This document shows, piece by piece, positions 44,501 through 50,617 of a DNA stretch of 64,000 nt. Every line of letters starts with the position of its first letter. Within the stretch, counting starts at the first letter, position 1. The DNA comes from Saccostrea echinata (taxonomy: Eukaryota): positions 2,914,001-2,978,000 of the forward strand of contig NW_026889756.1 of assembly GCF_033153115.1 (NCBI RefSeq), in the 5' to 3' direction. Both the position numbers and the translations under genes were made by a program. Below the pieces are notes generated by a model. It saw only the letters and a list, made by a program, of their open reading frames with translations. It had not been told where the DNA came from and did no database searches.

Positions 44501-45865
44501 ATTAATTATGGAGGCTAAGAGACATATTTTACCTGCAATTAGTGCCGTATGTTCATCCCCACATGCTACAGACTTCACTTTATCACCTCTCACCCAGAAC
44601 TTGTTTGGTAAGTTGTCTGCAAATCGACTCTTCCCAAATGTGAAGACAGCTCCAGACTCTGTTCATCATGAAAATAATAACATTAAATGACCAGTAACAC
44701 ATAAAAAAAATTATCTTAAACATATCATAGGTCCCAATGGTTTTGTTTAACATAAGTAAATGTTTACAACAGAAATGTTTATATGGTTTATCCTTGTATA
44801 TTGAGATAAGTACCTTACTCTCTCATCAGCATAAGAAATTTGAAAAATGACTTTAAAAAGCACTCCCTTAACTCATGACAAACGTCAAACACCAAAGGCA
44901 ATTTCAGATTTTTAAAAATTAAACAAGAGTCACCTTCATGAAAAACTGGAACTCATTATGGAGTAGTAAATATTTTGCTTGCTAAAGCTACTTCAGCTTA
45001 TTTGGTTGTGCATTTAATACAAGCCAAGTGTGATGCATAGAATAGACAAGACTGTCTATTACTAGATAACCTTTTATGGAACTAAGGTATCAAAATCTCT
45101 TCAACAGGGACAGTGCTCAGTATTTATAGACAGTTCAGTCGAACTTAATTGCCTCAAAGTCGATGAGACCAAGAAAAATCTTTGAGACATCTGAGGGTTC
45201 TAGATATTGAGATTAAAAATTATAATGAAAAATTTATCACTTTAACATATCTATAGTATTCGAGACATCGATGTTCGAGATACTAAAGTTCAACTGTATT
45301 TTGTTTATGCTCTTGCTCCTGATAGAAAATTACTTTGTAATCATGACTGCCATACATGAAAGCTTGAAGGATTAAATGCTTAAAATATTATTTTATTTAA
45401 ATATTATTTATTGTTGTAATTTTTTTGTAGGTCAACACGAAAAATAATTCTAAATAGATTACCCTTTTGTACACGACCCCCCCCCCCCCCTCCCCTCTGA
45501 AGTGCACTCCAACTCCCGAGTAATACAGAAAAAAAGAGATTTCGGTCCGGTGTGGACGGCATACTAGATGAACACCTCATTTAGGACTTGATCTCACTTT
45601 GCAAATTTCGAAAGAACAAATGTTTTGAATGGTGCCAATTTACCGCGGTTTGCCCATCCCCCCTCCCTATCTCTAACTTGTAAATTCGCATTCCACGCCT
45701 TTATAACAATATTGTGTCAAAGTGCGTGGGATTTATCGCATATTGATGTCGTTCTATGTTATCAGATTCTTCTCTAACATCCCTGGTGGCACCACAAGCT
45801 CCGTTTATCGGCTGCTGGACATGTTTAGACTTACCAGGAATCTCCGAGTCGTCCCCGGCCGCCAT
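26583..45865 (-). CDS. RPGR: X-linked retinitis pigmentosa GTPase regulator homologue (RPGR), 21 coding exons, 870 aa
   Basis: Exons 45865-45835, 44658-44533, 44085-43993, 43455-43393, 42148-41996, 41088-40939, 40464-40312, 39655-39503, 39222-39098, 38486-38280, 38069-37940, 36681-36575, 34816-34757, 34000-33722, 32315-32238, 31422-31296, 30864-30695, 30086-29951, 27168-27014, 26890-26798, 26606-26583; total 2613 nt, phases consistent. N-terminus SGAVFTFGKSRFADNLPNKFW…VACGDEHTA, RCC1 repeats, TFGDGRHGKLGL, VSCGGCHM, and C-terminal SRTCTIL*. The low-complexity exons 12-20 are less certain. Confidence 0.93.
27378..29759. mobile_element. 2.4-kb non-autonomous TIR transposon with TA TSD (Tc1/mariner-like ends) in RPGR intron 18
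   Basis: Perfect 27-bp TIR CAGTCCCTGAAACGTTCTACTTTCCCA flanked by TA; arrays of (GT)GAACG motifs inside both ends; no transposase ORF. Confidence 0.9.
30473..30710. repeat. 13/25-bp tandem repeat copying the RPGR exon 17 donor site
   Basis: CTTATCCTACC(T/C)TC units, which read AG|GTAGGATAAG on the - strand. Confidence 0.9.
31820..32237. repeat. ~30-bp degenerate tandem repeat rich in CCAAT motifs, starting at the RPGR exon 15 donor
   Basis: About 12 units of AAGTCAGCCAATCAGAARTCTGAATACCCC on the - strand. Confidence 0.85.
35063..35963. mobile_element. ~900-bp MITE
   Basis: 23-bp TIR TACGCAGGTAGGTTAAGGCTTCC / GGAAGCCTTAACATAGCTGCGTA; the terminal TA may be the TSD. Confidence 0.8.
36155..36592. 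repeat. 46-bp minisatellite containing the RPGR exon 12 end and donor
   Basis: About 9-10 units of CATGTACAGAAGTCAGAG|GTAGGTCAGGGGTCAAAAGTCAGGAGGT on the - strand. Confidence 0.92.
36868..37659. mobile_element. Element with TTATAC…GTATAA ends and a terminal ~165-bp fold-back (37486-37648)
   Basis: Palindrome ATTACCCCTTATGAG…CTCATAAGGGGTAAT at the right end; left boundary inferred from the TTATAC terminus. Confidence 0.6.
40786..40956. repeat. 29-bp repeat x6 duplicating the RPGR exon 6 donor
   Basis: TCACCTGTGACAATGG at 40790, 40819, 40848, 40877, 40906 and 40935. Confidence 0.95.
41062..41635. repeat. 65-78 bp repeats duplicating the RPGR exon 6 acceptor
   Basis: Three TTTTAG|AGGA units (69 and 78 bp apart) and five 65-bp TTTTAG|ATGATGGAGACC units, plus one degenerate unit. 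Confidence 0.92.
42394..42952. mobile_element. MITE with 6-bp TSD, copy 2 (same family as 2437-3053, inverted)
   Basis: TIR CAGTGATTGGGAAGG; flanks CGCTTC / CACTTC. Confidence 0.88.
45136..45298. mobile_element. Short Tc1/mariner-like MITE remnant
   Basis: CAGTCGAACTT…AAGTTCAACTG-TA; related fragments near 1880-1950 and 47105-47163. Confidence 0.55.
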
Positions 45866-46716
45866 TACTGTATCCTAAACAACATTCCGTAAATACCCGG
45901 ATGTTTACAGTGACATTAACACGTGCGTTTGTTTATCAATTCATAGGACACGCCCACATTCAATAAAATCAACAATATGCGATTGATACAGAAATATAGC
46001 ACTGAAATACACGTATGCAATTATGTTTTAAGAAATTTTTGAGTGTTAAGACTTGGGTCTGGTTTATAAATATGTATTAATAATACCTAGTATTGATTTG
46101 TAAAAAGGAGTTTTTACATATATATCAATAGGTTATACATATTTCTAACAAGGACCCAAGTACTTGAAGGTAATATTAATCATGCTAATGTTTTTGCACA
46201 AGTCTATCATCACTTAGATATCCAAACCAATGTTGTACAAATATACACACCTCAGGAATTGCAGCAGATTTTTCCAACATATGTTTTTGACGCTAGCTGC
46301 ATATGACTGCATCTTGCTTGCCTATGTAAGTGAGTCAGGTTGGTTCTAAGCTTGATGCTCCATTTGATGCATAATTCAACAGCAAACAGTACAACCTAAA
46401 TCCTTAATTCTAGTTCAGCACAGTACCGGTATTTATAGCTTATCATATGAAATACAAACAAAACATTTTAAGTTCCATTCCAAGAAAGATTTAGATGCTG
46501 CACATAGCAAACATTTTACCCTTGAGAGGCTGTAGTAATGGACAGCATTTAGTCTATAAATAGAGCCATACAAATCAAGCATGCATCCAGTGTAAATGTA
46601 AACTTTTCTTTGTTAAACACTTTCATTGATGGATGCATTTGTTCTAAACAGTTGAACCTCAGTATCTCAAACACTAATTTAAAATATTTTGAATACCAAT
46701 GTCCATGGATATATTG

Positions 46717-47075
46717 TGTAATGGTAGAGGAGAGAAATGCAGCAGACCATACCGGGATTCGAATCTGGGCCCCTTGAATCTTGCATCAGGTGCTCTACCA
46801 AGTGAGCTATCTAGCCACCGGCAATTGCACCCATCTGACTGCCACATTCCTCCCTCCTTAAAGGTCTTTGGTTCCCATAGACAAAAACCTAGGTTTTTCC
46901 CTGGCAGGTCTTTCACCTGTCACTTCCAGGGCATGGCATGGTACCAAATGTAATGGGAGAGAAGAATGCAGCAGATCAGACCAGGATTCAATCCCACACC
47001 CCCTGAATCTGCAGTCAAGTCCTCTACCAACTGAGCTATCTGGCCACCAGAGATCAAACCCATCTGACTGCCACA
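46717..47075 (-). mobile_element. Miniature non-autonomous LTR retrotransposon (TRIM) with tRNA-like LTRs
   Basis: 5' LTR 47075-46949 and 3' LTR 46846-46717, both TGTGGCAG…CATTACA and each with tRNA A/B boxes. PBS-like TGGTACCATG 2 nt after the 5' LTR; PPT AAGGAGGGAGGAA abutting the 3' LTR; flanks ATTG / GTTG. Confidence 0.85.
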
Positions 47076-47276
47076 GTTGAAGTTATTTAAAATTTGAAGT
47101 CCCATAGATATCTCGAAGTTTTTCTTGGCCCCATGTAGTTTGAGATAACTAAGTTTGACTGTATGTTAGATGCAGTGACTCAGGAGAAAGCACCTGTTTA
47201 TCACAAGTATGATACAGAGTAAAATAATGACTTAATTGCTGGACAATATTCATGACTCAGAGCCAACATAAAAATA

Positions 47277-47389
47277 ATAGGGGTCAGGCAGGTTTGATCA
47301 CTGGTGGCCAGATTGCTCAGTTCGTAGAGCCCAGATGGTAGATTATCTGAGTTCAATTATCAAATCTTGGTTTGAAAGTTCTTGTCACA
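47277..47389 (+). mobile_element. Degenerate solo LTR of the tRNA-LTR TRIM family
   Basis: GTTTGATCACTGGTGGCCAGATTGCTCAGTTCGTAGAGC matches the TRIM LTR; ends TGTCACA. Confidence 0.6.
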
Positions 47390-48501
47390 CATTAGACAGT
47401 TATATGCATATAAGTCCTCTATGGTCAAAACAAAGAAAAAAATAAATCAATGTTAGGTCATTTAATTAACTTATTTGCACTAACCATATGACAGCAGCAG
47501 TAAGCACTTGTACAATGTACATTTCTTATACATGTATTACCATATATTCTACATTTAAATTCAAAATTTACAAGCCATTGCAGTCTATTTTTGAGGTCTT
47601 TATATACTAGTAGTTCTGATATGTTCACCCACAGTGTATAAAATGTTACCTTTTAATATAACACACATGTATATGATTCAAAATGGGACAAAGCTTTGTA
47701 AAGTTATATATCTATCAAAATTCATATAATGTAATATACTAGTAATCAATGTCATATATATGAGCAAGAACACATGCCTCTGGTACAATATTTCACTTAG
47801 TTTGCCACATGTTTAAAAAAATTATCAGATTTAATGATAATTGTCAGCTGCCACTAAATACAAGTAAATCTAATGCAGACTTGTGTGCACCATTCTCACC
47901 TCCAGCCAAAACGTAAAAAAATCAGGAATTTTGGATACATGGGAAGAAACGTGTTCATTACATAATATAAATTTAATTCACATGTATAGAAAAGGAAATA
48001 TAAAATTGATACTGCACAATGAAGGATTACATGTAAAATGTCAGAATAACAGACATAATCTTATCATGCTCATTTAAATAAAAACAAAGACATTGATTTT
48101 CCGATTGCAGAAAGCAATGAAGATGGCAGTTTATGTAAAGATTCATAATGCAGTACATAGAAAGACAAAACAATAAAACACAGACAACTGAGTATTAAAG
48201 TCATTAATAATTACAAAAAAAAAAAATTAAAAATTGCACAATGGATTTCTTTGTAAGCTTTTTTACCATACAAAAAGTTATTACATGTATTGAAAAGTAT
48301 ATACATGTATTATTAAATGTTTCCATATCATACAATAATATTTGAATGCACTGGTTCTGTATGTTTCTGTAATAAATTGTGGGATAAATGTTTCTTCAAG
48401 AAACATGTGCTTCGGATTGTATGGTAAACAAACATGGCAAAACAAACTTACGTATAAACATTTCACTGCCCTTATTTGTTTTTATAAATACAAGTCCAGT
48501 G

Positions 48502-50617
48502 TTAGCTTTTTGACTTGATAAGATACAATGATAGTAAGTCTGAGAGCTTCCTCGAAGTTCCTGTAAAATTCTCCCAAAAATCCCTGACGACCCTCAGTGG
48601 AGGGGGATCCTCCATAGACAAGTGAAGGGGAAACATCTTGGTGACAACAAAACTGATATTCTGCTGAGAAAACTCCTCCATCAGAGTGCCTGGAAGGACT
48701 ACATAACTGTCATCATTGTGTCGTGTTCTGATACTTTCGACAAGCTTTTGCATGGAGGAACCCTGAAGGTCTGTGATTTGTTCTAGAGAAGAGTTGCTAA
48801 GCAACAGAGATCTTGGAGGCATGTACGTATGGAAGAAAAGAAATTGGTCCTGATGAGTAAAAACTGCATGAGGGTTGTGTGTGTGTTTTTCTATGTATGA
48901 TAAAAGGGGAATAACTCCTCCTTGGTGAAAAACTCCATAGAAAAATGTGCAAGTGATATTAAATATACTCCACACGGAGAAAAATAAATATCTGTAACGA
49001 ACACAATGCAGAGTGGAGGCACACAGAAGAATCACTACGGGCAAAATGGGGAGGAGAAACCTTGGTTCTTGATGAGGAAACATGGACAGTATGAAGACAG
49101 GGACCATCACGAAACACAACAGGACATGACGAGGGGATGTGGACTGTCTCAAAAGGAGTCTTTTAACTTCTACAAGCATAAGCACCACAAAAGGACCAAA
49201 CAAAATGAGTAAGTTGACAACAAGATGTGTGTACAGGGGGTGTCGTCCATGGGAGGATAGATTGTTGGGGTCTGTGTTGTATTTTATAAAATTCAGGGGA
49301 GTTACAACAAACAACTTGAAAAAATCCTCCCAGCATTCAGCAACATTTTCAGAAGTCACTACACACTGTCTAAATCTGGACAGGATGTCTACCACTGTTT
49401 TTCCGCTGTAGTATTGTGTGTCAATAAGAACCATTACAAGGGAGGGAAGAACAGCTCCGAAGGTCATAAAGGTGAAACATGACATCAAACCATCCCCGGC
49501 AATCACAACTGTCATAATCAGCCACAAGACGGGGCCCACACTAAAAGCTGCAAAAGTTGGTCTATCAAATAGTCCTATAGCTGATAAAAATCCTATCCAG
49601 AAAAAAGTCATACTGGAAATGTTCGTGATATGTTTACATCCGACTGATTTTGTATTATGTTTGTTTCGGAACTCTTCTAGAGACATCCTCTGGTATCTAT
49701 CATGCTGTTCCTTCTGAGTCTCTTTAAACTCTTTATTTGCTTGTATATCTTTCACTACTTTCATCACCAACAATAACAGAAGGGAGAAAACTACAGTTTC
49801 AATGGAATTGGAGAATGTTCTTGTTAGATATGTAAGCATAATGTAGGATGACGCTAAGATAGGGAGAACAGTTTTACTCTCCAAAGAAGACAAACCACAA
49901 ACACAGGCTACCACAAAATCCACCACCAGACTGAGGAGGCAGGCATTAAGCCGTGGCAGCACCACTGCCCAGCAAGACGTCCTTAACAGGGGAATCCCCT
50001 TCATCAGATAAAATGGGGGACCTGACTGGAAGTAAATGGGTGGTACAGATCGCAGTCCTGCAGAAAATTCCCAGCTCCGCAGCACAGAAATATTCAGAAC
50101 ATCACCTAAAATAGAGAAATAAAAACATTCTTAAGGCTTTACTTAAAACATTCAATTTTCTTTAAGATGTCTATGATTTATATTTAGTCATTAAAATAGT
50201 CCAAGATGAAACTGTGTATATACATGTACATGTATATAAATGACAAAATATTTAAAAGTAGAGTTTGGTCTATGAAACCTGAAAAAGGTAAAGACAACAA
50301 ATCTGATCACATAAATTCTTTATACAGGGGAGAAAAGAAAAAAATAGATCCCTCTGAAACACCAGAGGTGGGATCAGGTGCCTAAGAGAAATAAGCATCT
50401 CAACCTGCCATGAGCCCTTGCATTAATTTAAATACATGTAACCAGTAATGAATTCCACAATTATATTTTTATAAATACCTGCTACAACTTCTGTGTTCTG
50501 GAAAAACTCATCTGGATGTATGTATCCTTGTTGTGGAAGGAAAACCAAACAGAATCGGAGTAAAACCAGACTCAACCAGATCTTGTGGGACTGAAGCCAG
50601 GCTAGGTATGGCATCAT
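48502..50617 (-). CDS. PIGZ: GPI mannosyltransferase 4 (PIG-Z/SMP3), 580 aa
   Basis: Coding exons 50617-50479 and 50105-48502 (phase 1). Motifs GYIHPDEFFQ, WEF…LRS, TRTFSNSIE, DRPTF, TPLNFIKYN, HGRHP, PHQEPRFLLP, FHQGGV and HTYMPPR. Confidence 0.95.

Follow-up and report, generated by a model that had tools for sequence, protein, structure and literature searches.

A decayed Helenus-1-type TRIM copy in Saccostrea echinata: evidence from sister copies for priming by tRNA-His and for a candidate Gypsy helper

Introduction

Kojima (2024; PMC10886601) gave the name Helenus to tRNA-bearing TRIMs and the name Ajax to those bearing 5S sequence. The closest described family is Helenus-1_SaGl from Saccostrea glomerata, listed in Table S1 of that paper with an LTR of 129 bp, an interior of 103 bp, a total length of 361 bp, a target site duplication (TSD) of 4 bp and a His primer. 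Primer and helper were inferred there from complementarity alone, and for animal Helenus elements neither the helper nor a function of Pol III was settled. The main text of the paper mentions neither hairpins nor 'SaGl' and refers to termination for Cassandra only; terminators and hairpins are likewise not mentioned in the available text of PMC10853983. In the accessible literature beyond Kojima 2024, Helenus was found as a name only, in PMC13570524 and PMC10946416, subscription journals and Repbase lying outside the scope of this search.

In the present work, a 359-bp element was analysed in a 64,000-nucleotide stretch of Saccostrea echinata DNA (hereafter the window), together with its relatives in the genome. 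The element and its family are already known and were published in 2024; with both class and family in print, the window element adds nothing to the catalogue. What goes beyond Kojima 2024 are modest mechanistic additions, namely primer-copy footprints, helper candidates together with a chimera, and a fold-back present in two families.

Results

Structure of the window element

Two minus-strand direct repeats of about 130 bp had been noticed in the first-pass annotation, and they were borne out by BLAST as LTRs of 127 and 130 bp (Table 1). Both start with TGTGGCAG and end with CATTACA; they are 78.6-81.7% alike (78.6% by BLAST, E 4e-24) and enclose an interior of 102 bp. An A box and a B box were found in each of them, as claimed. 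The TGG-starting primer site lies 2 nt past the first LTR, from position 46946, and the purine tract directly adjoins the second LTR; both features, like the short interior, had been described correctly. The copy is shorter than 1 kb, has two LTRs with TG...CA ends and is non-coding, only chance frames of 72-86 aa (start codon not required) overlapping it. The TRIM architecture that had been proposed is therefore upheld, with LTRs, primer site, purine tract and dispersed copies with TSDs all present.

Table 1. Features of the window element and its insertion site (positions within the window)
Feature	Position	Strand	Remark
Whole Helenus-1-type TRIM copy, decayed, 359 bp	46717..47075	-	83-86% identical to other full copies
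5' LTR, 127 bp, TG...CA	46949..47075	-	BLAST
tRNA-like core of 5' LTR	46973..47045	-	Rfam
A box, 5' LTR	47038-47027	-	
B box, 5' LTR, damaged	46994-46984	-	
Primer-binding site for tRNA-His(GUG)	46937..46946	-	Two G-to-A changes vs young copies
Predicted internal hairpin 1	46899..46931	-	Conserved in family
Predicted internal hairpin 2	46861..46882	-	Approximate limits
Polypurine tract	46847..46859	-	Near-match to that of His-primed Gypsy elements in genome
3' LTR, 130 bp	46717..46846	-	
tRNA-like core of 3' LTR	46816-46744	-	
A box, 3' LTR	46809-46798	-	
B box, 3' LTR	46765-46755	-	
Target site duplication, upstream copy, CAAC	47076..47079	-	
Target site duplication, downstream copy, CAAT	46713..46716	-	
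Host MITE with terminal inverted repeats	46649..47161	.	Insertion context, not element part

The tRNA-derived nature of the LTR core was supported by Rfam RF00005, which matched the two window cores with 29.0 and 28.4 bits (E 0.004 and 0.006; gathering score 29), and by young LTRs of the family, which fold as a cloverleaf. Neither window LTR does so, and ARAGORN called no tRNA over the window. The element had been described as complete, which holds for its layout, whereas the copy itself is decayed and its cloverleaf fold lost. Likewise, the expected misannotation as pseudo-tRNAs applies to young copies, which ARAGORN reports, and less so to the window copy.

Rfam applied to 45000-49000 with E up to 1 gave only tRNA, and no 5S-derived sequence was found in the window LTRs. 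The statement that Ajax is the tRNA-derived mollusc counterpart proved wrong, since Ajax is 5S-rRNA-derived and nemertean and the tRNA-derived elements of bivalves are Helenus (PMC10886601). As a label for the window element, Ajax is ruled out by the definition in that paper together with the Rfam scan.

Identity, decay and insertion context

Comparison with the Helenus-1_SaGl consensus was made by eye. In this comparison, the interior of one copy (L002) differed at 4 of 103 sites and the LTR of another (L036) showed 3 differences in its first 80 bases; young copies were about 4% divergent, corresponding to approximately 96% identity. The interior of the window copy carried 13 substitutions and 1 gap (89/103 = 86%). 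Judged by its sequence, the window element is almost certainly a Helenus TRIM of the SaGl-1 family.

Only 3 CpGs were counted in the window copy, compared to 21 in young copies. Transitions were present at 17 of 42 CpG positions, compared to 30 differences at 317 other positions, and the CpG rate was the highest among the 54 ordinary-primer units compared. The T runs are broken in both LTRs, including the family T5 run in the 5' LTR. The window copy is an old, CpG-decayed relic and is itself likely dead; its low LTR identity fits such decay, because CpG transitions are in excess.

The element is nested in a MITE located between two genes. At 14 of 19 other loci of this MITE, the target site is present as a single copy (at one locus, L179, the site was counted from the motif visible in the sequence), and the element boundaries are thereby fixed independently. 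The reported 4-bp near-TSD, CAAC vs CAAT with 3 of 4 positions matching, thereby gained independent backing. The MITE belongs to a TA-flanked family with 1198 first-look candidates in the genome.

The two flanking genes are arranged head to tail on the minus strand, about 1.6 kb apart. The first encodes an Alg9-like mannosyltransferase (PF03901; about 48502-50704), which we take to be PIGZ-like, and the second is an RCC1-repeat gene, presumably RPGR-like, running from a probable start codon at 45865 down to about 40900. Public-run contigs 100% identical to 47457-47900 were observed, probably representing the 3' UTR of the mannosyltransferase gene. An exon-like frame at 55480-55791 (-) presumably resembles nuclear cap-binding protein subunit 2.

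Other Helenus-related sequences were also present in the window. Short fragments of the window-copy LTR occur at 47283-47329 (+, 87%), about 200 bp from the element and in opposite orientation, and at 54354-54382 (+, 97%). At 615-755 (+), a 141-bp solo LTR of another Helenus family, Helenus-1_CGi-like by eye, is flanked by a TSD matching at 3 of 4 positions.

Copies in the genome

The genome (923 Mb) was searched with the window element, giving 1320 first-look candidates. Of these, 40 were scored and yielded 46 full or near full-length matches with 83-100% identity, including the window copy, which places the observation well outside what chance would give; those other than the window copy were 83-86% alike to it, and the LTR pairs of other copies were 90-100% alike.

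Among the fetched loci, 29 whole or tandem elements retain both ends, and 22 of these carry an exact 4-bp TSD. Two more, one of them the window copy, matched at 3 of 4 positions and five at 0-1, and exact 5- or 6-bp TSDs were found in none of the 29. The family thus integrates with TG...CA ends and duplicates 4 bp of the target. The search thus revealed a dispersed multi-copy family with an LTR-interior-LTR layout, and the tandem arrays that were looked for were also encountered, three of them among these 29 elements. Five 'solo' rows in the TSD survey, which came from searches aimed at full elements, had no TSD and were mostly inner LTRs.

Identical flanks at different places were noted for L009/L014, for L015, L017 and L026, and for L028-L029. 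Such loci are either duplicated segments or haplotype copies, one holding a single unit and one a tandem. In one Helenus-1 array (L092; G000:C18, about 2643700-2644500), primer sites occur in three states, as ordinary sites, as long read-throughs of the tRNA and as 18-nt overwrites. ARAGORN reported three unassigned tRNAs ('tRNA-???') in it. Since young Helenus copies are mistaken for tRNA genes without an assigned type, masking them is advisable.

Priming by host tRNA-His

Six host tRNA-His(GTG) genes were examined; they were identical and had no genomic CCA. In most copies of the family, the primer site matches mature tRNA-His over 10 nt and then departs from it. An exact two-motif pattern located 99 primer sites, and in 8 of them this 10-nt match was replaced by the exact 18-nt complement of mature tRNA-His. 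The 18-nt overwrites rejoin the interior at one same short repeat in five cases and in register once. In retroviruses, plus-strand synthesis stops after 18 nt, before m1A58 (PMC8599865).

A tree was calculated for 58 of 67 units (9 rows left out), with the primer part excluded and with 200 bootstrap trees. The seven perfect-site copies in the tree required 6 changes and were grouped in 0% of the 200 bootstrap trees, although only 2 of the changes are demanded by well-supported branches and the bootstrap was still unsettled. In the L020 locus, a perfect-site unit and its ordinary-primer neighbour have private changes in common. Apparently, the 18-nt overwrites arose several times independently. 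An association of perfect-primer copies with tandem arrays was considered and dropped, as 3 of 12 follow a preceding unit, compared to 8 of 55 ordinary ones, numbers that are too small.

Longer copies of the primer were also found. In L089, L092 and L155, about 38 nt of tRNA-His were copied with a few mismatches, ending near position 37, which we take to be m1G; in two identical loci, the tRNA-His copy runs beyond this length. The commonest overwrite removes one arm of hairpin 1, and such copies could consequently be dead ends.

The resemblance of the primer site to the complement of the tRNA-His 3' end, described as loose in the first-pass annotation, was thus strengthened by the 10-nt match and by the exact 18-nt copies of the mature tRNA in sister copies. 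On these footprints, Helenus-1 is very probably primed by tRNA-His.

Several loci (L042, L070, L088, L107, L171 and others) consist of an LTR-like end and an 18-19-nt copy of tRNA-His, followed by unrelated DNA. These pieces are possibly strong-stop cDNA captured in the genome.

Candidate Gypsy helper

Perfect His primer sites numbered 92 in the genome, and 16 of them belong to one Gypsy family, in which they separate LTR from interior. Three copies of this first family were examined, having lengths of 8.7-9.0 kb and LTRs 99.4-99.8% alike. Their gag (446 aa) and pol (about 1308 aa, with protease, RT, RNase H and integrase) are both open; no match to an envelope family was found in them. The TSD was 4/4 in two of the three copies and 3/4 in the third. 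The family uses the same primer as Helenus, and its purine tract differs by one base.

A second Gypsy family, with pol 69% identical, matches equally well in the purine tract and better at the LTR end, its last 10 bases being the same as those of the Helenus-1 LTR. A third family (47% identical) matches more poorly. Because the second family matches as well as the first, the helper is narrowed to a clade and not to a family. Apart from the primer site and the purine tract, no similarity was found between the Helenus and Gypsy interiors. Young His-primed Gypsy elements of at least three families were seen at L099-L101, L166, L170 and L208, the similarity within their LTR pairs reaching 100%.

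One chimeric locus (L165; G000:C54, about 16810200-16811800, -) combines a Helenus-2-type LTR, a perfect primer site and about 690 nt of the gag start of the first Gypsy family (86-94%). At a 13-nt word that gag and the Helenus purine tract have in common, the sequence switches to a Helenus-2 LTR, interior and LTR. One LTR is split by an inverted-repeat element of GC-rich repeats, approximately 360 bp long, and the gag part carries a further insertion, about 170 bp in length. The gag segment is entered and left at the two priming signals, which agrees with template switching inside a common particle; recombination at the DNA level is possible as well, because the chimera is a single copy, belongs to the sister family Helenus-2 and not to Helenus-1, and has no matching TSD. 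A second candidate chimera (C16:12452754) turned out to be a whole Gypsy copy whose gag holds the shared word.

The proposal of a Gypsy-type partner thus gained candidates, namely His-primed Gypsy elements with the same primer, a nearly identical purine tract and a 4-bp TSD, together with one sister-family chimera. These shared signals suggest that a His-primed Gypsy helper probably moves Helenus.

Transcription and RNA folding

From base 22, the young LTR folds into the full cloverleaf, with acceptor, D, anticodon and T stems; its anticodon loop has 8 nt, and T5 comes directly after the cloverleaf. The interior is free of T runs above T3 in 41 of 52 copies, and T5 follows the tRNA-like core in 46 of 52 5' LTRs; no such T run was seen by eye in the published oyster family Helenus-1_CGi. 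T4-T5 runs are only partial terminators in human cells, where structure close by aids termination (PMC5725217; bioRxiv 2020.09.11.294140). Since T5 precedes the primer site in the 5' LTR, full-length RNA needs either read-through or Pol II read-in. Contigs from four public runs, guessed to be RNA, contained pieces of the family, a few of them running from LTR to interior or from interior to the following LTR; none spanned the window copy with its flanks, and no empty allele of the locus was seen in contigs that left these flanks uncovered. Such contigs give no strand, start or end and thus speak neither for nor against transcription.

Folding of the purine tract with the LTR was compared with shuffled sequences, giving z of -4.69 and -5.64 in two families, with 0 of 200 shuffles as low in each. 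The first 27 LTR bases are predicted to pair with the tRNA 3' arm: none of 1000 shuffles was as low for L008, and 0-5 of 500 were as low for Helenus-2 (9 parsable of 14 copies), compared to 87 of 1000 in the control, a real tRNA-His gene. One mis-parsed locus in this test yielded 900 of 1000. The paired letters differ between the families (G-C and C-G vs A-U and U-A), and in the predicted full RNA the pairing joins the 3' purine tract to the 5' LTR end. Selection on the fold-back is likely, although matched changes could also come about through fold-back copying in its absence.

The interior alone folded no better than shuffles (z -0.6 to -1.7). Hairpin 2 shows a C-G / U-A double change, in 11 vs 7 of 19 copies, which may be one event.

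These features bear on the origin of the transposition template. With the same element and the same helper, the template could be a Pol II product, arising by read-in from a host gene or from an LTR promoter, the tRNA-like core then giving only short terminated Pol III RNAs or serving as a structural signal. Such a template would be consistent with the position of T5 upstream of the primer site and with the fold-back, which uses the first 27 LTR bases, a segment that a Pol III transcript would contain in the 3' LTR only; Pol III function is, moreover, described as not validated by Kojima (PMC10886601). However, young copies retain the A and B boxes, the cloverleaf and the terminator as a set, long T runs are avoided in the interior, and the related Cassandra has been reported to be transcribed by Pol III from LTR to LTR (summarised in PMC10886601). 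A Pol II template is consequently regarded as unlikely, and the design of the young LTRs makes it rather likely that Pol III produces the template.

It is very improbable that the LTR tRNA mimic acts as the element's own primer or as a working tRNA. Although young LTRs keep all four tRNA stems, the 8-nt anticodon loop and the failure of ARAGORN to assign the tRNA argue against a working tRNA, and a role as primer is contradicted by the primer site, which matches host tRNA-His, and by the copied 18 nt, which correspond to tRNA-His and not to the mimic.

Finally, two tRNA-derived SINEs or pseudo-tRNAs lying side by side, or a local tandem duplication, would account for two tRNA-like repeats only about 80% alike in the window copy, but this explanation is refuted by the LTR-interior-LTR layout shared by dozens of dispersed copies with TG...CA ends and exact 4-bp TSDs and by LTR pairs up to 100% alike, with the copies having no poly-A or repeat tails, the primer-copy footprints, and the fit of the low window LTR identity to decay further opposing it.

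Discussion

Taken together, the window element is, with good probability, a copy of Helenus-1_SaGl that was primed by tRNA-His, likely transcribed by Pol III and likely moved by proteins of His-primed Gypsy elements.

The proposed cycle would begin with Pol III initiating at the tRNA-like promoter that the 5' LTR contains. T5 just behind this promoter would end most transcripts; a read-through fraction would continue to the T5 run of the 3' LTR and yield an RNA of about 320 nt carrying the tRNA-like part at both ends. Used twice in this manner, the leaky stop would provide both a short tRNA-like RNA and the full template. The RNA would then be packaged in Gypsy particles, the two small internal hairpins being candidate signals. 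In the third step, shown by the footprints in sister copies, mature tRNA-His primes reverse transcription, and plus-strand synthesis copies 18 nt of it. The purine tract and the LTR start are predicted to pair with the tRNA 3' arm and the LTR end, which would hold both RNA ends together for strand transfer. The cycle ends with integration, which is shown to leave the TG...CA ends and 4-bp duplications.

A broader reading, offered tentatively and considered doubtful as a whole, is that oyster Helenus RNA is a structured stowaway of a His-primed Gypsy clade. The purine tract and LTR start would be selected to pair with the 3' arm of the mimic; this pairing would bring the RNA ends together for strand transfer and shield the mimic from nucleases that process tRNA. 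The leaky T5 terminator would determine how much short tRNA-like RNA is made relative to full template. The primer copy would sometimes be inherited, as in retroviruses and unlike Ty1 and Ty3. The mismatched primer site would persist because hairpin 1 is usually lost on overwriting.

Young Helenus copies, young His-primed Gypsy elements with a matching purine tract, the chimera and the footprints all occur in one genome, and so both questions left by Kojima, Pol III function and the helper, are testable in one animal.

When compared with described families, the element agrees with Helenus-1_SaGl in its sizes (LTR 129-130 bp, interior 102-103 bp, about 361 bp in total) and LTR sequence, as well as in its 4-bp TSD, degenerate tRNA-His primer site and purine tract. 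A difference was noted at the terminator, where the consensus has T4 and most copies in this genome have T5. Helenus-2_SaGl and Helenus-2/2B/2C_CGi (PMC10886601) have the His primer site, purine tract and internal hairpin layout in common with it; they differ in the LTR start and acceptor region, the fold-back being kept with other letters. A Helenus-2-type family is abundant in this genome, with 1761 candidates, 40 of them scored, and 4-bp TSDs.

Ajax of nemerteans and Cassandra of plants are likewise described as non-coding TRIMs with a Pol III-type promoter in each LTR, derived in their case from 5S and not from tRNA; Ajax further differs in its 5-bp TSDs and tRNA-Leu primer (PMC10886601). 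The biv-TRIM described by Satovic et al. (2019; PMC6934838) likewise comes from bivalves, forms tandem arrays and contains internal inverted repeats. In contrast to Helenus-1, its account gives repeats of 202-218 bp, an interior of 77-80 bp and no clear primer site, and no tRNA-like LTR core is mentioned in the available text.

With respect to the primer site, a parallel is provided by ETn/MusD of the mouse, as presented by Cullen and Schorn (2020; PMC7472051). These elements are also non-autonomous and have a mostly mismatched primer site with scattered reversions to a perfect one, ascribed there to copying of the primer tRNA; they differ in belonging to a retroviral system in which the ETn LTRs are common to the helper. 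The same authors suggest that mismatched primer sites escape silencing by tRNA fragments. According to their account, the primer copy is inherited by retroviruses and not by Ty1 and Ty3, whereas the Gypsy-linked Helenus inherits it in a minority of copies.
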